From a virus (lineage: Duplodnaviria; Heunggongvirae; Uroviricota; Caudoviricetes), in IMG/VR virus record IMGVR_UViG_2778261449_000001: DNA of 7,299 nucleotides; one strand, written 5' to 3'. The notes under the pieces are model-generated. The model was not told the DNA's origin and searched no databases. It was given only the letters and a program-made list of their open reading frames with translations. Shown one piece after another: positions 1-7,299 of the stretch (positions are counted from its first letter, which is position 1; each line of letters opens with the position of its first letter). Both the position numbers and the translations under genes were made by a program.

Positions 1-125
1 TGAAAGTTGGGAAAGTGTATATCGATTACGACTATACCCCCGTCCCGCCGCTGGAAAACCTGAGCCTGCGCCAGCGCATCACCGATACCTATCTGGCGAA
101 CCTGTCGGACTCGGTCAACAGCTAA
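1..125 (+). CDS. FI: 3' end of tail sheath gene (P2 gpFI-like), partial, runs off the window start
   Basis: Open frame from the window start to TAA at 123-125 (…[10 protein letters not shown]). It sits immediately upstream of FII in the conserved P2 order FI-FII-E-T-U-D. The FII Shine-Dalgarno (AAGGAG, 123-128) overlaps the stop. Assignment is by synteny only, as the fragment is short. Confidence 0.6.
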
Positions 126-137
126 GGAGCTCTGAGC

Positions 138-656
138 ATGGCGTTACCCCGCAAACTGAAATACCTGAATATGTTCAACGATGGCCTCAGCTATATGGGC
201 GTTGTTGAATCCGTCACCCTGCCAAAACTGACCCGCAAGCTGGAGAAATATCGCGGCGGCGGGATGCCGGGGGCGGTGTCGGTTGACCTTGGCCTCGATG
301 ACGATGCGCTGTCGCTTGAGTGGACGCTCGGCGGTCTGCCTGACATTGAATTGTGGGCGCAGTACGCCTCACCGGGTGCTGACAGCGTGCCGCTGCGTTT
401 TACCGGCTCTTATCAGCGTGACGACACCGGCGCGATTTCTGCCGTCGAGGTGGTGATGCGTGGCCGTCATAAAGAATACGACGGCGGTGAAAACAAGCAG
501 GGCGAAAGCGGTACAACCAAAATGGCGACCGAGTGCGCCTATTACCAGCTCACGATCGACGGCAAAGAAGTCATCGAGATTGACGTGATCAACATGGTGC
601 TGAAAGTCGACGGTGTCGACCGTATGGCAGAGCACCGCAAGGCGATTGGCCTGTAA
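138..656 (+). CDS. FII: Phage major tail tube protein (P2 gpFII family)
   Basis: 172-aa ORF starting MALPRKLKYLNMFNDG…, which I recognise as the P2 FII tail tube N-terminus, with the same length as P2 FII. Strong SD (AAGGAG) 9 nt upstream of the ATG. Position matches the P2 tail cluster. Confidence 0.9.
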   Translation: MALPRKLKYLNMFNDGLSYMGVVESVTLPKLTRKLEKYRGGGMPGAVSVDLGLDDDALSLEWTLGGLPDIELWAQYASPGADSVPLRFTGSYQRDDTGAISAVEVVMRGRHKEYDGGENKQGESGTTKMATECAYYQLTIDGKEVIEIDVINMVLKVDGVDRMAEHRKAIGL

Positions 657-710
657 TCCTTCAACCGGTCAGTGAGGCTGGCCGGTCATTTACCCTGATG
701 AGAAATTCGC

Positions 711-1025
711 ATGAAAAATATCAATGAGACTGCTGTTGCTGACACTGAGAACGTCAATCCGAATGTCGTTATTTTTGACACCCCGCTGATGCGCGGTGAG
801 CAGAAAGTTGAGCAGGTCACCTTAACCAAACCGAATGCGGGAACCCTGCGCGGGGTGTCGCTGGCGTCGCTGGCAAATTCCGACGTTGATGCGCTGATTA
901 AGGTGCTGCCGCGCATGACATATCCGGCACTGACCGAGCACGAGCTCGCGCGTCTGGATGCGTCAGACCTGATTTCACTGGCCGGTAAGGTGGTCGGTTT
1001 TTTGTCACCAGCTTCGGGTCGCTGA
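711..1025 (+). CDS. E: Tail assembly chaperone gpE (zero-frame product)
   Basis: 104-aa ORF (MKNINETAVADTENV…) lying between the tube and tape measure genes, the conserved position of the chaperone. It contains the slippery run GGTTTTTTG at 996-1004 near its 3' end. Confidence 0.85.
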   Translation: MKNINETAVADTENVNPNVVIFDTPLMRGEQKVEQVTLTKPNAGTLRGVSLASLANSDVDALIKVLPRMTYPALTEHELARLDASDLISLAGKVVGFLSPASGR

Positions 1026-1180
1026 CCTTCCCGGAAAAACTGTCGGTCGATGACCTGATGGCGGATATTGCGGTGATCTTCCACTGGCCGCCATCAGAGC
1101 TAAATTCCCTGAGTGTGACCGAGCTCCTGACATGGCGCGATAAGGCGCTGCAACGAAGCGGAAGCCATCATGAGCAATAA
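711..1180 (+). CDS. E+E': Tail assembly chaperone gpE+E', made by programmed -1 ribosomal frameshift at T6G (996-1004)
   Basis: After the slippery site, the -1 frame (codons from 1004) is open for 59 codons (VTSFGSLTFPEKLSVDDLMADIAVIFHWPPSELNSLSVTELLTWRDKALQRSGSHHEQ*) and stops at TAA 1178-1180, overlapping the T start at 1170. This is the conserved G/GT-like arrangement known for P2 E/E'. Confidence 0.75.
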
Positions 1181-3611
1181 CGTCAGAATCGAGGTGCTGC
1201 TGAACGCAGTTGACCGGGCAAGCCGCCCGCTTAAAGCGATTCAGAACGCCAGCAAATCCCTGTCTGGTGATATCCGCAATTCACAAAAAAGCCTGTGCGA
1301 ACTTAATGTGCAGGCGTCCCGTATTGACGGATTCCGCAAAGCCAGCGCCCAGCTTGCCGTGACCGGTCATTCGCTTGAGAAAGCGAAACAGGAAGCGCAA
1401 GCCCTTGCCACACAATTTAAAAACACCGAGCGCCCGACGCGCGCGCAGGCGCAGGTGCTTGAATCGGCAAAGCGTGCCGCCAACGGGCTGCAGACGAAAT
1501 ACAACAGCCTCACTGAGTCTGTTAAGCGCCAGCAACGTGAACTCGGTGCAGTCGGTATTAATACCCGTAATCTGGCAAATGATGAGCGGGGGCTTAAATC
1601 GCGCATCAGTGAGACTACCGCGCAGCTTAATCGGCAGCGTGAGGCACTGGCGAAAGTCAGCGCACAGCAGGCGAAGTTAAGCCGGGTGAAAGCGCGGTAT
1701 CAGGCCGGTAAATCACTGGCCGGAAACGCGGCGGCGGCTGGCGCAGCCGGTGTTGGTATTGCGACGGCGGGAACCCTCGCCGGGGTTAAGCTGCTGACGC
1801 TTGGTTATGAATTTGCACAGAAAAACTCAGAGCTGCAGGCCGTGCTCGGTGTCGACAAACAGTCGCCTGAAATGCAGGCGCTGCGTAAACAGGCGCGCCA
1901 GCTCGGTGATAATACCGCTGCCTCTGCCGATGATGCGGCGGGTGCGCAGATTATCATTGCCAAAAGCGGCGGCGATGCGGCGGCCATTCAGGCGGCGACG
2001 CCGGTCACACTGAATATGGCGCTGTCGAACAAGCGCACGATGGAAGAAAACGCTGCGCTGCTGACAGGCATGAAATCTGCTTTTCAGCTCTCTAACGATA
2101 AAGTCGCGCATATTGGTGATGTTCTCTCGATGACGATGAACAAAACCGCCGCCGACTTTGATGGAATGAGTGATGCGCTGACCTATGCCGCGCCAGTGGC
2201 GAAAAATGCCGGGGTAAGTATCGAAGAAACCGCCGCAATGGTGGGGGCGCTGCACGATTCCAAAATCACCGGCTCGATGGCGGGTACAGGGAGTCGTGCC
2301 GTTCTGAGTCGCCTGCAGGCGCCAACCGGTAAAGCGTACGACGCCATCAAAGAGCTCGGTATTAAAACGTCAGATAGCAAAGGCAATACGCGCCCGATAT
2401 TTTCCATCCTGAAAGAAATGCAGCGCAGTTTTGAGAAAAACAATCTTGGAACGGGTCAGAAATCCGAATACATGAAAACCATTTTCGGTGAAGAGGCCAG
2501 CTCGGCGGCCGCCGTGCTGATGGCCGCCGCATCAAGCGGCAAGCTCGACCAGCTCACCGCCGCGTTTAAAGCCTCAGACGGTAAGACTGAGGAACTGGTT
2601 AAGGTTATGCAGGATAACCTCGGCGGCGACTTTAAAGAGTTTCAGTCAGCCTATGAGGCGGTCGGCACTGACCTGTTTGATCAGCAGGAGGGCTCACTGC
2701 GTAAGCTGACGCAGACGGCCACGCAATATGTGCTCAGGCTCGACGGCTGGATCCAGAAAAATAAAGGGCTGGCGACCACCCTCGGCGTGGTGGTTGGTGG
2801 TGCGCTGGCGCTGATCGGTGTGATGGGCGGGATTGGCCTTGTCGCATGGCCGGTGGTGATGGGGATTAATGCCATCATTGCGGCGGCTGGCGTGCTCGGT
2901 GTGGTTTTCAGTACGGTCGGCGGCGCGATTGTCACGGCCATTGGCGCAATCAGCCTGCCGGTGCTGGCGGTAGCCGGTGCAGTGGTGGCCGGTGCATTGC
3001 TGATCCGCAAATACTGGGAGCCGCTCGGTGCATTCTTCTCGGGCGTGGTGGAGGGACTGAAAGCCGCCTTTGCACCGGTGGGGGACATGTTTACCCCGCT
3101 CGCGCCGGTGTTTGACGCCATCGCTGAAAAGCTGGGTGTCGTCTGCCAGTGGTTTAAAGACCTGCTTGCGCCGGTGAAAGCCACGCAGGACACGCTCTCC
3201 AGTTGCAAAAATGTCGGCGTTACTTTTGGCCAGGCGCTGGCTGATGCGCTGATGATGCCGCTCAAGATGTTTAACAGCCTGAGCGGCAAGGTCGGCTGGC
3301 TGCTGGAGAAACTCGGCGTTATCAAAAAAGAATCCAGCGACCTCGACCAGACCGCAGCGAAAGCGAATAAGGCGTCCCCGAATGGCGGGTATATCCCTGC
3401 GACCGCAGGTTATGGCGGGTATCAGGCGTATCAGCCGGTCACAGCGCCCGCAGGCCTGTCTTATATCGACCAGAGCAAAAGCGAATACAACATCAACCTG
3501 CAGGGCGGAGTCGCACCGGGCAGTGACCTTGACCGCCAGCTCCGTGACGCGGTCGACAAACTTGACCGCGAGAAACGTGCGCGTCAGCGATCCAGTATGA
3601 GACTCGACTGA
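1170..3611 (+). CDS. T: Tail tape measure protein (P2 gpT family)
   Basis: 813-aa ORF directly after the E/E' chaperone. The N-terminal half is coiled-coil-like and rich in Q/A/K/R. There is a long Gly/Ala/Val/Ile-rich hydrophobic segment (LGVVVGGALALIGVMGGIGLVAWPVVMGINAIIAAAGVLGVV…), typical of tape measure proteins. RBS-like GGAAG precedes the ATG. Confidence 0.9.
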   Translation: MSNNVRIEVLLNAVDRASRPLKAIQNASKSLSGDIRNSQKSLCELNVQASRIDGFRKASAQLAVTGHSLEKAKQEAQALATQFKNTERPTRAQAQVLESAKRAANGLQTKYNSLTESVKRQQRELGAVGINTRNLANDERGLKSRISETTAQLNRQREALAKVSAQQAKLSRVKARYQAGKSLAGNAAAAGAAGVGIATAGTLAGVKLLTLGYEFAQKNSELQAVLGVDKQSPEMQALRKQARQLGDNTAASADDAAGAQIIIAKSGGDAAAIQAATPVTLNMALSNKRTMEENAALLTGMKSAFQLSNDKVAHIGDVLSMTMNKTAADFDGMSDALTYAAPVAKNAGVSIEETAAMVGALHDSKITGSMAGTGSRAVLSRLQAPTGKAYDAIKELGIKTSDSKGNTRPIFSILKEMQRSFEKNNLGTGQKSEYMKTIFGEEASSAAAVLMAAASSGKLDQLTAAFKASDGKTEELVKVMQDNLGGDFKEFQSAYEAVGTDLFDQQEGSLRKLTQTATQYVLRLDGWIQKNKGLATTLGVVVGGALALIGVMGGIGLVAWPVVMGINAIIAAAGVLGVVFSTVGGAIVTAIGAISLPVLAVAGAVVAGALLIRKYWEPLGAFFSGVVEGLKAAFAPVGDMFTPLAPVFDAIAEKLGVVCQWFKDLLAPVKATQDTLSSCKNVGVTFGQALADALMMPLKMFNSLSGKVGWLLEKLGVIKKESSDLDQTAAKANKASPNGGYIPATAGYGGYQAYQPVTAPAGLSYIDQSKSEYNINLQGGVAPGSDLDRQLRDAVDKLDREKRARQRSSMRLD

Positions 3612-3624
3612 GGGAGGGATAAAA

Positions 3625-4089
3625 ATGTTAATGGGGCTGGGCTTTTTCGTGTTTGAACGGCGCACCCTGCCGCATCAGTCAATGCAGTATTCGAAGGACT
3701 ACCGCTGGGTGTCAAATGACCGTATCGGAAAACCCCCGGCTTATCAGTATCTCGGGGAGGGGGAAACCTCGCGTACCCTGTCGGGCACGCTTTACCCTGA
3801 AATCACCGGCGGGCGTCTGTCACTGATGGCCATCGAACTGATGGCCGATGAGGGGCGCGCATGGCCGCTGATTGACGGAACCGGCATGATCCACGGGATG
3901 TATGTCATCGATAAAGTGACTCACAACCACACCGAGTTATTCAGCGACGGCGCGGCTAAAAAAATCGAGTTTAGCCTGTCGCTTAAGCGGGTGGATGAAT
4001 CCCTCGCGGCCATCTACGGCGACCTGAAAACGCAGGCTGATAATCTGGTCACGTCTGCCGGTAACTGGCTCGGGGGGCTGGCGGGATGA
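3625..4089 (+). CDS. U: Phage tail protein gpU
   Basis: 154-aa ORF, similar in size to P2 gpU, with SD GAGGGAGGG 6-8 nt upstream of the ATG. It sits between T and D, and its stop overlaps the D start (ATGA at 4086-4089), indicating translational coupling. Confidence 0.85.
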   Translation: MLMGLGFFVFERRTLPHQSMQYSKDYRWVSNDRIGKPPAYQYLGEGETSRTLSGTLYPEITGGRLSLMAIELMADEGRAWPLIDGTGMIHGMYVIDKVTHNHTELFSDGAAKKIEFSLSLKRVDESLAAIYGDLKTQADNLVTSAGNWLGGLAG

Positions 4090-5249
4090 TAACGGGAATG
4101 ACTATTCAGGCCGGGGCGCGCATTGCTCCTGATTTTATGCTCACGCTCGGTGGCGCAGATATCACACAGAATTTCAGCGACCGGCTTATCGGGCTGACCA
4201 TGACCGACAATCGCGGATTCGAGGCTGACCAGCTTGATATCGAGCTCGATGATACCGATGGACTGGTCGAGTTGCCGCCGCGCGGGGCATCGCTGACCCT
4301 GTGGCTGGGCTGGCAGGGCTCGGCGCTGATTAACAAAGGGAGTTTTACGGTTGACGAAATCGAGCACCGGGGCGCGCCTGACAGGCTGACTATCCGGGGA
4401 CGCAGTGCGGATTTTCGCGGGACGCTGAACTCGCGCCGCGAGCAGTCATGGCACGACACCACGCTCGGGGTGATTGTCGAGACTATCGCGCAGCGTAACA
4501 AACTGACGGCCAGCGTGGCTGATACCCTGAAAGCTGTTGCTGTGCCGCATATTGACCAGTCTCAGGAATCCGACGCGGCGTTTTTGTCCCGACTGGCGGA
4601 TCGCAACGGGGCAACGGTTTCGGTCAAGGCCGGGAAATTGTTATTCCTGAAAGCCGGTAGCGCGATGACGGCCAGTGGTAAGGCCATCCCGCAAATGACC
4701 GTCGAACGCGGCGACGGCGACCGGCATCAGTTTGCCATAGCCGACCGCGAGGCATACTCCGGCGTAACCGCTAAATGGCTGCACACCAGAGACCCGAAAC
4801 CGCAAAAGCAAAAGGTGAAGCTCAAGCGCAAACCCAAAGAGCAGCACCTGCGTGCGCTGCAGCACCCGAAGGTTGCTAAAACATCGGCAAAGGCTAAAAA
4901 GAAGAAGGTGCAGGAAGCGCGGGAAGGTGAGTATATGGCCGGTGAGTCCGACAATGTTCTGGAACTCACGACCATCTACGCGACAAAGGCGCAGGCCATG
5001 CGCGCAGCTCAGGCAAAGTGGGACAGGATACAGCGTGGGGTGGCGGAGTTTTCGATCACGCTCGCCACTGGCCGCGCTGATTTATTTCCTGAAACGCCGG
5101 TGGCAGTGAAAGGCTTTAAGCGCGTTATAGACGAGCAGGCGTGGATAATCAGTCGTGTGGTACACAGCCTCAACGGGAGCGGCTTCACGACGGGCTTAGA
5201 GCTTGAGGTTAAGGTTTCTGATGTGGAGTATGAAAGCGAGGAAGTTTAA
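4086..5249 (+). CDS. D: Phage late control gene D protein (gpD tail protein)
   Basis: 387-aa ORF, the same length as P2 gpD, in the conserved position after U and before ogr. It contains a lysine-rich low-complexity stretch (KPQKQKVKLKRKPKEQ…AKAKKKKVQ). Confidence 0.85.
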   Translation: MITGMTIQAGARIAPDFMLTLGGADITQNFSDRLIGLTMTDNRGFEADQLDIELDDTDGLVELPPRGASLTLWLGWQGSALINKGSFTVDEIEHRGAPDRLTIRGRSADFRGTLNSRREQSWHDTTLGVIVETIAQRNKLTASVADTLKAVAVPHIDQSQESDAAFLSRLADRNGATVSVKAGKLLFLKAGSAMTASGKAIPQMTVERGDGDRHQFAIADREAYSGVTAKWLHTRDPKPQKQKVKLKRKPKEQHLRALQHPKVAKTSAKAKKKKVQEAREGEYMAGESDNVLELTTIYATKAQAMRAAQAKWDRIQRGVAEFSITLATGRADLFPETPVAVKGFKRVIDEQAWIISRVVHSLNGSGFTTGLELEVKVSDVEYESEEV

Positions 5250-5329
5250 CGGCGTGTGTTGTTTATGTGTTTGTTTTATAAGTAAAAATTAGTAAAATTA
5301 ACACATTGAATACGCCGGAGACCCTCATC

Positions 5330-5551
5330 ATGTTTCATTGTCCGAAATGCCATCATGCCGCCCACGCCCGCACGAGTCGCTATTTTACTGATACCACAAA
5401 AGAGCGGTATCACCAGTGCACAAACATTAACTGCAGCTGCACGTTTGTGACCACTGAAACAGTCGAGCGTTTTATCGTGTCGCCGGGGGAAGTAGTACCC
5501 GCGCCGCCGCATCCGACATCATCAGGTCAGCAACAAATTCACTGGATGTGA
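5330..5551 (+). CDS. ogr: Ogr/Delta-family zinc-finger late transcription activator
   Basis: MFHCPKCHHAAHARTSRYFTDTTKERYHQCTNINCSCTF… carries the C-x2-C-x22-C-x4-C zinc finger and closely matches my recollection of the P2 Ogr N-terminus (MFHCPLC…). I prefer the ATG at 5330, with GGAG 9 nt upstream, over the TTG at 5306 used by the ORF track. An AT-rich promoter-like region lies at 5255-5305. Confidence 0.9.
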   Translation: MFHCPKCHHAAHARTSRYFTDTTKERYHQCTNINCSCTFVTTETVERFIVSPGEVVPAPPHPTSSGQQQIHWM

Positions 5552-5558
5552 CAAACGA

Positions 5559-5586
5559 GAAAGCCCCGCGAATGCGGGGCTTTTTG
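5559..5586 (+). terminator. Rho-independent terminator downstream of ogr
   Basis: AAAGCCCCGC-GAAT-GCGGGGCTTTTTG: a perfect 7-bp GC-rich stem (5563-5569 / 5574-5580) with a 4-nt loop, followed by T5. Confidence 0.85.
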
Positions 5587-5857
5587 CAACTTTTAGATCA
5601 GTTATGTTAAGTACATTTCCGTCGGCAAAGTGCCAGGAGCGGGTTCTAGAGAGTGACTAACGTTAGTTATATGTGTAAAATTCCTTAAAAATAAGAAGGA
5701 TATATATCCATGACAGCAATTGCATATTGGATTAACTGAGAATCAATTGAGAAATTTTTGGGGGGGCAAAAAATAAACTAGCTAATTAAATTTTTATAAA
5801 TAACGAATATAAGACTGCAAGCCATTTAACAAAAGTTTATAAATAAAGGAGTCAGTT

Positions 5858-6709
5858 TTGAACAATATCCCCATATCTACTCAATGGACTTTAGACGCTA
5901 CGGGTGAAGTTGGACGCTCATCAGTAAATTCTGTTTATATGATTATATGTCCTGCGACAGGCTCGAAAGGATCTGGTTTTTTAATAGATAATGGGTTAAT
6001 AGTAACGAACGAGCATGTTATCACTGGATGCTCTACAAATCAGATTTTCGCAATTTCAGCTTATGGACAGAAGATTCCAATTTCTCAAAAATGGATAGAT
6101 TCTGATCGCGATTTAGCTGTGCTGAGACCTGCCATTACCCAGACTGGTGGGCTAAGTATTGTTAAGGATAATGATCTTAAAGTTGGTGAATCAGTAACAA
6201 CTTGGGGATACCCATTAGGATACAACGGTCCTGCACCGTTACTATCCGTTGGTTATCTAGCAGGATTTAACTCATACCAAACCGCCAAGGGACAAAAAAA
6301 ACATCTAGTGGTAAATGGGGCATTTAACTCAGGAAATTCTGGTGGAGCTCTTTTAAAAGCTTCAGATAATAAAGTAATAGGTATTGTAGTGAGTAAGCAT
6401 GCTCCTATCAGTCAATACCATCAATCAGCTATTGAAGCTTTGTCTGAAAATATGAGTGGCGTCACCTATACCGCTACTAATGACGCTGGAGAAACTAAAA
6501 GTTTTGTAGAATCTCAAATTGTAGCAGAATTATTGATTCATATGAGAAGTCTAACTCAAGTTATGATTGGAGAAGCAATTGCAGCAGAGGAATTACTTTC
6601 GATGCTTAGCGAAATTGACTTGAGTCCACCACAATCTATGTCAAGAAATGCCTTATGTCATTGCGGGAGTGGAAAACGCTTCAAAGAATGTCATGGAAAG
6701 ATATCCTAG
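5858..6709 (+). CDS. Cytoplasmic trypsin/chymotrypsin-like serine protease with a C-terminal SEC-C zinc-binding motif; prophage cargo (moron) gene and candidate defence effector
   Basis: 283-aa ORF with a TTG start at 5858 and SD AGGAG 6 nt upstream. Motifs read directly from the translation: GSGFLIDNGLIVTNEHV (His box), DSDRDLAVL (Asp) and NSGNSGGALL (GxSGG serine box) form a trypsin-like catalytic triad. The C-terminus NALCHCGSGKRFKECHG matches the SEC-C metal-binding motif found at the SecA C-terminus. There is no N-terminal signal peptide or transmembrane segment. The gene is markedly AT-rich compared with the flanking phage genes. Confidence 0.8.
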   Translation: MNNIPISTQWTLDATGEVGRSSVNSVYMIICPATGSKGSGFLIDNGLIVTNEHVITGCSTNQIFAISAYGQKIPISQKWIDSDRDLAVLRPAITQTGGLSIVKDNDLKVGESVTTWGYPLGYNGPAPLLSVGYLAGFNSYQTAKGQKKHLVVNGAFNSGNSGGALLKASDNKVIGIVVSKHAPISQYHQSAIEALSENMSGVTYTATNDAGETKSFVESQIVAELLIHMRSLTQVMIGEAIAAEELLSMLSEIDLSPPQSMSRNALCHCGSGKRFKECHGKIS

Positions 6710-6854
6710 TAAGTACTTATATCAGTCTGATAATGGCTCTTCCAATACAAAAGACTTCACTTACTCTGCCGTCATCTCTGCTCCTCGCTTATTGCAGACG
6801 GTCAAAAGCTTACAAGCTGTTGACTAGATGTGTTCTTACATTGTCAGTTAAAAC

Positions 6855-6882
6855 AAAAGCCCCGCAAATGCGGGGCTTTTTG
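6855..6882 (+). terminator. Rho-independent terminator downstream of the cargo gene; near-identical copy of the ogr terminator
   Basis: AAAGCCCCGC-AAAT-GCGGGGCTTTTTG: stem 6859-6865 / 6870-6876, then T5. It differs from the 5559-5586 terminator at a single loop base. Confidence 0.85.
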
Positions 6883-6947
6883 TATCGATGTGGTCAATGT
6901 GTGGACATTGATAGAAATAAATCCATTTATTTCAGTAAGTTACATGC

Positions 6948-6974
6948 AAAAAATAAGCCCGTGTAAGGGAGATT
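6948..6974. other. att: P2-type attachment core (prophage-host junction)
   Basis: AAAAAATAAGCCCGTGTAAGGGAGATT matches the 27-bp P2 att core as I recall it. It lies where attP sits in P2 (just after ogr) and overlaps the terminator of the minus-strand sRNA gene. No integrase ORF follows, consistent with host DNA beyond. Confidence 0.7.
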
Positions 6975-7034
6975 ACACAGGCTAAGGAGGTGGTTCCTGG
7001 TACAGCTAGCATTTTATGGGTTATGTTTTTCAGC
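6948..7034 (-). ncRNA. cyaR: Hfq-dependent, CRP-activated small RNA CyaR (RyeE)
   Basis: The reverse complement reads GCTGAAAAACATAACCCATAAAATGCTAGCTGTACCAGGAACCACCTCCTTAGCCTGTGTAATCTCCCTTACACGGGCTTATTTTTT (87 nt), which matches my memory of E. coli CyaR. It ends in an intrinsic terminator (stem CCTGTGTAA / TTACACGGG, then T-run) that coincides with the P2 att core. In E. coli K-12 cyaR is known to lie next to the cryptic P2 remnant (ogrK). Confidence 0.7.
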
Positions 7035-7041
7035 GAAACGG

Positions 7042-7084: not shown

Positions 7085-7299
7085 GAATTTTCCATCCGGG
7101 AAAAATAATCGAAATTAATCACTTACCGTGGGGATTACGCGCTGAGAGATCCCCTCATAATTTCCCCAAAGCGTAACCATGTGTGAATAAATTTTGAGCT
7201 AGTAGGGTTGCAGCCACGAGTAAGTCTTCCCTTGTTATTGTGTAGCCAGAATGCCGCAAAACTTCCATGCCTAAGCGAACTGTTGAGAGTACGTTTCGA

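Follow-up and report, generated by a model that had tools for sequence, protein, structure and literature searches.

The 7,299-nucleotide stretch of viral DNA analysed here (IMG/VR record IMGVR_UViG_2778261449_000001; hereafter the window) spans the right end of a prophage of Escherichia coli that is P2-like. Between ogr, the final core gene of the prophage, and its right attachment site (attR) lies an AT-rich insert whose single gene encodes a 283-residue protein (WP_001059829.1) with a trypsin-like protease domain and a C-terminal SEC-C motif. This insert is a real, undescribed one-gene accessory module ('moron') that a P2-like lineage has gained at the ogr terminator. Comparison of homologous loci indicates that the gene is an autonomous single-gene module, captured repeatedly by unrelated mobile elements and moved across domains of life. 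A defence function is plausible, on circumstantial grounds.

A one-gene insert at the ogr terminator

The insert and its surroundings contain the following features, with coordinates referring to the window.

5306-5551, plus strand: ogr, the P2 late-gene activator (Pfam Ogr_Delta, E = 2.2e-20; annotated in RefSeq as a DNA-binding transcriptional regulator)
5560-5586: ogr terminator hairpin, copy 1, AAAGCCCCGCGAATGCGGGGCTTTTTG, the left border of the insert; a terminator-like site and one copy of a 27-nt direct repeat
5587-5857, plus strand: AT-rich 5' region, GC content 0.31, with no open reading frame (ORF) of ≥40 residues; presumed promoter region
5858-6709, plus strand: protease gene, 283 residues, TTG start; the sole long ORF of the insert
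6710-6855, plus strand: 3' untranslated part of the insert, of which 6710-6802 is common to an IMG/VR prophage copy
6856-6882: terminator hairpin, copy 2, the right border of the insert, which would terminate the protease gene; 26 of 27 positions identical to copy 1
6883-6947: P2-like DNA from the terminator to the attachment site (att), by alignment also present in prophages without the insert
6948-6974: attR core, AAAAAATAAGCCCGTGTAAGGGAGATT, overlapping the 3' end of cyaR
6951-7036, minus strand: cyaR (ryeE) small RNA gene, the host integration target (Rfam RF00112, 100.7 bits, E = 2e-20)

The composition of the insert is strongly foreign. Its GC content (5587-6855) is 0.373, against 0.573 in the tail genes (1-5249), and the GC content at third codon positions is 0.26 in the protease ORF, against 0.65-0.67 in genes T and D. 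A preliminary description of the window, made from the DNA letters alone, had noted this island of ~1.27 kb among GC-rich tail genes, and our figures agree with it. It had also let the island run up to the att core, which needs correction: the right border is the second ogr terminator, and 65 nt of phage DNA separate this copy from the att core.

The right terminator copy has the same loop as the terminator of an empty relative (L018). In the alignment, empty relatives have one terminator copy followed by GTATCGATG, and this copy leads directly into GTATCGATGTGG and on to att. Because these relatives carry a single copy, the acquired unit is 1296 bp long and includes one copy of the terminator. 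Recombination between the duplicated copies could remove the island precisely. In a consensus scan both hairpins scored on the minus strand only; in our reading of the sequence, the maximal hairpin stem on the plus strand takes in part of the T run. The gene had been described as having its own promoter and terminator. A terminator hairpin, copy 2, does follow it. The promoter is not demonstrated, as the sigma-70-like matches in the 5' region, with promoter-like ones at 5653-5681 and 5747-5774, do not rise above the level expected from shuffled sequence.

The insert was found in 35 of 5426 complete E. coli genomes, always on the chromosome and at ≥99% identity. Exactly 35 genomes also carry the matching D-ogr lineage at ≥99%, and the accessions listed overlap the carriers of the island. 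Several of the carriers bear NDM or extended-spectrum beta-lactamase (ESBL) isolate names. In two prophages with 87.5% identity over D-ogr (L018 and L019), there is no insert and the ogr terminator passes straight to att. Prophages of the ogrK type, examined in a spread sample of the 765 genomes that match ≥80% of the joined insert flanks, read through the junction without a gap. With the next lineages either empty or holding other cargo, the gene is lineage-specific cargo at a usually empty site. A core P2 gene is thereby rejected, and the earlier view of a single-gene cargo island is upheld.

At the same post-ogr position, a prophage of the closest sister lineage with 94.8% identity over D-ogr (NZ_CP028759.1, 6031-8213 of the extracted locus L017) carries a 69-residue hypothetical ORF and a degraded group II intron, whose ltrA has an internal stop. 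The region of the ogr terminator has thus been struck independently by other mobile DNA.

The complete genome NZ_AP021944.1 contains a copy of 5587-6885 at 100% identity and shows the insert in an intact-looking prophage of ~32.5 kb with the att core at both ends. The left site (attL) lies beside int and has two mismatches, the right site matches the core at 6948-6974 exactly, and the two are 32.5 kb apart. The protease gene is therefore inside the attL-attR element, at its extreme end. In prophage-free E. coli genomes, the match to the window begins exactly at 6948.

Part of the 5' region accompanies the gene elsewhere. About 220 nt of it (5635-5857) are 87% identical in DNA to the copy in a Klebsiella prophage of a different phage type. 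This equals the identity of the coding regions, so the 5' region moves with the gene. Homology to the Klebsiella copy spans 5635-6711 and reaches 6802 in a viral contig; with the copies from Yersinia, Microbulbifer and Vibrio/Pseudoalteromonas/Pseudidiomarina it covers about the ORF only. The ends of homology thus differ among contexts and none is common, and a discrete transposable unit was rejected on this ground. An integron origin of the E. coli copy was ruled out as well, as no attC-like core sites were found in 6690-6900.

A 19-nt inverted repeat surrounds the ORF (5697-5715 and 6689-6707, 17 of 19 positions complementary), with its right arm in the SEC-C codons. In our reading it is probably a chance occurrence, since the complementarity is lost in the Klebsiella sequences.

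A predicted cytoplasmic protease of the HtrA type

The protease gene has the following features.

5969-6385, plus strand: Trypsin_2 protease domain, residues 38-176 (Pfam, E = 1e-19)
6014-6016, plus strand: catalytic His53, within TNEHV (residues 50-54)
6110-6112, plus strand: catalytic Asp85, within DRDLAVL (residues 83-89)
6338-6340, plus strand: catalytic Ser161, within GNSGGAL (residues 159-165)
6413-6613, plus strand: conserved alpha/beta segment and C-terminal helix, residues 186-252 (...SQIVAELL..LTQVMIGEAI...), from the secondary structure of an AlphaFold2 model
6644-6700, plus strand: SEC-C, or SecA-type metal-binding, domain, residues 263-281 (Pfam PF02810, E = 3.6e-7; 30.4 bits against a cut-off of 20.4)

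Translation starts at a TTG codon preceded by a good Shine-Dalgarno sequence (AAGGAG, 5846-5851) with a 6-nt spacer, as had been noted from the sequence. The N-terminal 27 residues ahead of the first internal methionine are conserved throughout the family, with P5, T8, W10, D13, G16, G19 and R20 at least 90% conserved, and the Yersinia homolog begins at TTG too; both observations support this start. A homolog with 89% identity (P0003, in locus L102) is annotated from an ATG and begins MKESVLNNIP.... The corresponding codon in the window is ATA (5843-5845), five codons upstream of the TTG, and the usable start in the window is the TTG with its AAGGAG.

Profile searches and structure prediction both place the protein among the trypsin-fold proteases, as had been proposed. 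Besides Trypsin_2, Pfam Trypsin also matches (E = 4.9e-8), and these two matches and that to SEC-C are all above the Pfam gathering cut-offs. The putative His-Asp-Ser triad was located in the three motifs named earlier. His53, Asp85, Ser161 and the GNSGG sequence are invariant in an alignment of 58 homologs, and in a comparison of the family profile with DegQ (E = 8e-17) TNEHV, DRDLAVL and GNSGGAL align with the DegQ catalytic motifs. An AlphaFold2 model built from the 58 homologs has a mean predicted local distance difference test score (pLDDT) of 85.3 and a predicted template modelling score (pTM) of 0.78. Its best PDB matches in Foldseek are MucD, DegP, DegQ, Deg1 and DegS (E ~1e-11), all of the HtrA type; those to MucD, DegP, DegQ and DegS have a probability of 1.00 and template modelling scores of ~0.5-0.57, normalised to the query. 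The model and the motifs together indicate that the protein is a chymotrypsin-like protease of the S1C/HtrA type with a complete triad, and it looks catalytically intact. In NCBIfam it matches MarP and HtrA-type models, with scores far under the equivalog cut-offs of HtrA, DegS and MarP.

The model contains elements beyond the protease fold: an N-terminal helix (residues 6-25), an alpha/beta segment (residues 186-232) and then the conserved strand-helix that ends in LTQVMIGEAI. E218, Q220 and Q234-E239 are invariant among the 58 homologs, and family members that lack SEC-C terminate just past the 186-252 segment. Taken alone, this segment matches no Pfam family, and no PDZ domain was found in the protein by Pfam at E ≤ 0.1.

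The protein was said to have no secretion signal, and this agrees with our calculation. There is no lysine or arginine in the first 10 residues, and the maximal hydropathy over 19 residues is 1.17. With no basic n-region and such a low maximum, a simple hydropathy and n-region calculation (not SignalP) yields neither a signal peptide nor a transmembrane helix. The protease is thus predicted to be soluble and cytoplasmic.

A SEC-C tail confined to one clade

The proposed C-terminal SEC-C knuckle is also borne out by Pfam, although only 17 of the 58 aligned family members have the motif. In the E. coli protein, it occupies residues 267-280 (CHCGSGKRFKECHG), with C267, C269, C278 and H279 as predicted metal ligands in the pattern C-x-C-x8-C-[CH]. 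The last 20 residues are about 75% identical (~15 of 20) to the SecA zinc-binding domains 1TM6, 1SX0 and 1OZB, with an E value of 6e-6 against 1TM6, and the SecA sequences that resemble the tail include the peptide crystallised with SecB. The metal-binding domains of SecA and YecA coordinate zinc or iron and bind SecB and/or the ribosome; for the SEC-C domains of SecA, binding to both SecB and the ribosome is described (10.1101/613315; PMC6620043). The C-terminal tails of SecA, YecA and YchJ share with our protein the motif RNxxCxCGSGKxFKxCHG, and as in SecA the tail is at the extreme C-terminus past a flexible linker. In SecA and YecA, however, it is attached to a translocation ATPase or a UPF0149 domain, and here to a protease.

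The tail occurs only in the closest clade, in which all named members are gammaproteobacterial. The C-termini of other family members consist of TPR repeats, another helical tail or nothing. Judging from this alignment, SEC-C is a clade-specific add-on to a core of ~256 residues. Because it is clade-restricted and replaced elsewhere, the tail is likely an exchangeable adaptor outside the catalytic core, and since most members lack it, SEC-C cannot be a requirement for the core activity of the family.

A small family in diverse mobile elements

A word-indexed search returned 1402 homologs (E ≤ 1e-3). In an exhaustive search of 1.84 billion representatives, 140 clusters matched at E ≤ 1e-30 and 344 at E ≤ 1e-10, against 13,541 generic trypsin-like matches at E ≤ 1e-3, which indicates that the family is small and discrete. 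A pattern scan found it in 104 of ~185,000 species genomes. Its members are nevertheless widely spread: the E. coli protein shares 50-57% identity with copies in Bacteria and Archaea, including Nitrosocosmicus, Pacearchaeota, Iainarchaeum, Methanosarcinales, the Candidate Phyla Radiation, Chlamydiae, Dehalococcoidia, Brocadiaceae and many Acidobacteriota. Conservation across such different hosts suggests either a universal substrate or partner or a self-contained enzyme. Synteny is lacking within Acidobacteriota, where just 19 of 630 locus pairs have any neighbour in common.

Homologs are found in several kinds of mobile element. In Vibrio parahaemolyticus, a homolog with 72% identity is the only ORF of an integron cassette that attC sites flank (attC-type repeats at 7860-7989 and 8858-8985 of locus L004), and the Vibrio integron arrays with a homolog also hold SUKH/SMI1-type immunity genes and toxin-antitoxin-like cassettes. 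Another homolog (L006) occupies the int-cI interval of a K139-like Vibrio prophage, a region described as a phage defence hotspot in such phages (Rousset et al., PMC9122126). In the long-tailed Klebsiella prophage the homolog is located at the end and adjoins umuDC and a TIR protein; in IMG/VR contigs it is also at the end, with baseplate and tail-fibre genes. In Pseudidiomarina the homolog follows a type I-C retron (714 bits) as the second gene downstream, after a DUF2971 gene. One metagenomic locus (L108) has a type III restriction-modification system and a KAP NTPase, then the protease gene, followed by CcdAB and ParDE. A further homolog is beside the integrase of a TrwC-relaxase island, and one adjoins an IS91-family transposase. 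Four loci (L035, L076, L077 and L083) have an integron integrase (TIGR02249, 328-455 bits) next to the homolog and come from four phyla: Acidobacteria, Neomarinimicrobiota, a deltaproteobacterium and Binatia. The most common neighbour family, an integron integrase, occurs in no more than 6 of 78 loci.

Two of these neighbourhoods show particular arrangements. In L108 (4796-7882), the 721-residue KAP NTPase ends 39 nt upstream of the protease gene on the same strand, and the pair may be a two-gene variant; the NTPase was rejected as a conserved partner, as it does not recur in other loci. In L012 (JGI Ga0556621_000006, 5196-12453), a SEC-C-less homolog with 59% identity has a solo Cas1 on one side and a family-B DNA polymerase on the other, and in gene order this arrangement resembles a casposon.

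Comparison with known systems

The protein has the fold, the His-Asp-Ser order and the GNSGG sequence of the HtrA, DegP, DegQ, DegS and MucD proteases (MEROPS S1C). It differs from them in having no PDZ domain and no export signal and in adding the N-terminal helix and the insertion at residues 186-232. Its family also differs in being mobile and patchy rather than housekeeping.

Trypsin-like proteases of the same superfamily occur in known defence systems: retron XI, fusions with Avs1/Avs2, LmuA and HamA, and trypsin-metallo-beta-lactamase and nuclease-protease pairs. Like our protein, these are cytoplasmic and found in defence contexts. They are fused to a reverse transcriptase (RT), STAND or helicase sensor and/or paired with a pro-effector (PMC7736814; 10.1101/2025.11.14.688446; PMC12799240; 10.1101/2025.09.03.673762), and they cleave an effector encoded next door (10.1101/2025.11.14.688446; PMC12799240). 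In PADLOC-DB v2, the protease part of our protein matches RT-Protease_XI (E = 7e-21), PDC-M35A, LmuA and HamA, and the SEC-C part matches E2. The RT-Protease_XI match covers positions 334-495 of the 506 in the profile, which is the protease part only; no RVT match was found in Pfam, and the island has no second ORF. Membership in retron XI, Lamassu, Hachiman, Avs or PDC-M35 was rejected, because the PADLOC matches are domain-level only. As the preliminary description had been unable to match the architecture to a named defence system, the two agree. Literature searches on the accession WP_001059829.1 and on the pairing of trypsin and SEC-C domains found nothing relevant.

The nearest precedent for a SEC-C protein in defence is Rugutis, a single-gene antiphage protein with a SEC-C motif from a lactococcal plasmid (PMC11381338). 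It resembles our protein as a single gene on a mobile element with SEC-C, a likeness judged on the motif alone. Rugutis has its SEC-C motif at the N-terminus, and the remainder has no known fold or protease domain (PMC11381338).

The insert also resembles the accessory loci of P2 (tin/old at A-Q; Z/fun at G-FI) and other morons in its foreign composition, variability and insulation by terminators. Studies of P2 and P4 hotspots list sites at A-Q, Z/fun or the tail genes, int-att and int-primase, and ogr-att is absent among the described P2 hotspots (PMC13586616, PMC9122126, PMC9519451); the protease gene does not appear in these studies either. Here the gene is located at ogr-att, a site that is empty in other sampled prophages.

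Possible functions

With a confidence slightly short of even, we infer that the protease would be expressed from the lysogen and serve as a conflict or anti-phage effector, docked through its variable tail. The protease would be inactive or harmless in the lysogen until infection. Upon infection it would block phage development by cleaving either a protein of the phage or a conserved factor of the host, with an outcome akin to the abortive infection or exclusion caused by Lit of prophage e14. Lit is a zinc metalloprotease that cleaves EF-Tu, leading to abortive infection. It matches the proposed role as a prophage-encoded cytoplasmic protease that acts alone as a defence effector, although its fold is unrelated. 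The C-terminal appendage (SEC-C, TPR or none) would be a docking or sensing module, and the SEC-C knuckle, on the model of SecA and YecA, could tether the protease to SecB or the ribosome. The neighbourhoods of the SEC-C clade point to such a role, with the int-cI hotspot, the retron, the restriction-modification, KAP and toxin-antitoxin genes, the TIR protein and the integrase/TrwC island, and Rugutis is consistent with it as a precedent for single-gene SEC-C defence.

A number of observations weigh against an effector role. A constitutively active cytoplasmic protease would need a control mechanism, and none is visible. In the 5' region, six sigma-70-like matches were found where 5.7 are expected from shuffles, so a promoter is not demonstrated. 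Unlike the known defence proteases, the protein stands alone, with no RT, NTPase or partner, and clustering ~1000 neighbour ORFs from 78 loci revealed no conserved partner gene. No full-length match to any system component was found in PADLOC-DB v2, and the best domain-level match is no better than generic Trypsin_2 (72.7 vs 72.1 bits). In a first batch, of two, of ORFs that flank distant members, 144 were scanned with Pfam and PADLOC. Most are housekeeping genes, such as those for tRNA synthetases, queuosine synthesis and ribosomal protein L13; besides these there are only a handful of methyltransferases, a single retron RT and a single AbiEii. Enrichment in defence islands is therefore not demonstrated for these members. 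Among 50,697 deposited phage genomes and among plasmids, there is no DNA or protein match, and 7 of 2.9 million viral contigs have the gene. Finally, the very high cross-domain conservation would be unusual for a fast-evolving phage sensor, and a host-target abortive mechanism or general quality control fits it better.

Such quality control could itself be the function. The protein may be a cytoplasmic HtrA-like protease of proteostasis, carried for the fitness of the host under stress and not against phages, and in the SEC-C clade its targets might be secretory precursors bound to SecB or the ribosome. Its closest solved relatives are all HtrA, DegP, DegQ and DegS, its NCBIfam matches are of the MarP/HtrA type, and its tail resembles those of SecA and YecA, which act in Sec-dependent protein handling (10.1101/613315; 10.1101/2020.07.21.215244). 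Conservation between Bacteria and Archaea suits a universal class of substrate, and in many metagenome-assembled genomes the neighbours are housekeeping genes. Against this, the scores remain far below the HtrA, DegS and MarP equivalog cut-offs and neither a PDZ nor any other known substrate-sensing domain is present. The family is also rare and patchy (140 clusters, 104 of ~185,000 species and 35 of 5426 E. coli genomes), shows no synteny even inside a phylum, and in the SEC-C clade every context examined is a mobile element or a defence or toxin-antitoxin locus. We consider a proteostasis role rather unlikely.

The protease could instead benefit the element that carries it, by degrading host defences, the repressor of a rival prophage, or factors that limit establishment or induction. 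Its position within the packaged phage genome, at the extreme end, and its recurrence at the termini of three or more phage types agree with this, as do two contexts that adjoin a UmuD-like S24 peptidase gene and umuC, an SOS-linked cargo. The gene is also found in an integron cassette, chromosomal sites, islands, an element with Cas1 and family-B polymerase, and Archaea, where a phage-specific benefit would not apply, and the deposited phages lack it. Because the ogr terminator sets it apart from the late operon and its composition is strongly foreign, the gene fits a moron expressed from the lysogen better than a gene of the lytic cycle. We consider a pro-element or counter-defence role improbable. 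A role in inter-bacterial conflict or addiction would make the protein a toxin held in cis, for example by the conserved N-terminal helix, or a degrader of incoming toxins or bacteriocins. The immunity and toxin-antitoxin-like cassettes of the Vibrio arrays and the CcdAB and ParDE pairs that flank the gene in L108 would suit this, and in our view the TTG start points to weak translation, as is often seen with toxic products. The neighbourhood has no conserved cognate antitoxin or immunity gene, however, and the protein has no secretion or delivery domain. We consider this explanation very unlikely.

A more specific form of the effector role can be drawn: a one-protein immune system, in which a latent protease is docked by swappable adaptors onto a universal hub and, on infection, aborts phage development by cleaving a conserved protein of host or phage there. 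We regard it as unlikely. For enterobacteria and vibrios this would mean the SecA-mimicking knuckle as adaptor and SecB or the ribosome exit site as hub. Because the target would be near-universal, the same protein would work after transfer between Bacteria and Archaea, and its lone capture by prophages, integrons, islands and casposon-like elements would follow.

If the protease is a defence effector, it would be a rare stand-alone protease system, it would link a SecA-type zinc knuckle, known as a module for SecB and the ribosome, to immunity, and it would add ogr-att to the cargo sites of P2-like phages. Even if it is not, the insert carries an uncharacterised lysogenic-conversion function, a cytoplasmic, PDZ-less HtrA-like protease that integrons and prophages have carried into E. 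coli lineages of clinical relevance.

Other features of the window and the prophage

The tail region to the left of ogr contains the genes listed below, with E/E' before T.

138-656: FII, tail tube gene
1170-3611: T, tape-measure gene
3625-4089: U
4086-5249: D (Phage_GPD, E = 6e-25)

Rfam matches to leader families and to GcvB at 6800-6990 stay under the gathering scores and stem from the terminator hairpins. Beyond cyaR, the window continues into the yegQ/trhP side of the chromosome. Chromosomal matches on this side end at ~7141, and the last ~160 nt (7140-7299) match, at 100%, the end of ISVsa5, an insertion sequence of the IS4 family (IS10-like), on several plasmids. This indicates that the insertion sequence had inserted just past cyaR in the source strain. 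In the host chromosome next to the prophage of this strain (L001, 8997-9591), a ParD/ParE-RelE type II toxin-antitoxin pair lies between yegQ and yegP; it is also present in L019, and the matching stretch of L018 has no annotation for it.

The prophage of NZ_AP021944.1 has further accessory genes (coordinates of L116). Its defence hotspot between GpA and GpQ holds a DUF3696 ATPase and a 370-residue hypothetical protein (10803-13474), and its Z/fun site, from the tail-fibre assembly gene to the sheath gene, is empty. Between the virion-morphogenesis gene at the position of P2 S and baseplate gene V lies a gene for a 328-residue hypothetical protein (22502-23488).

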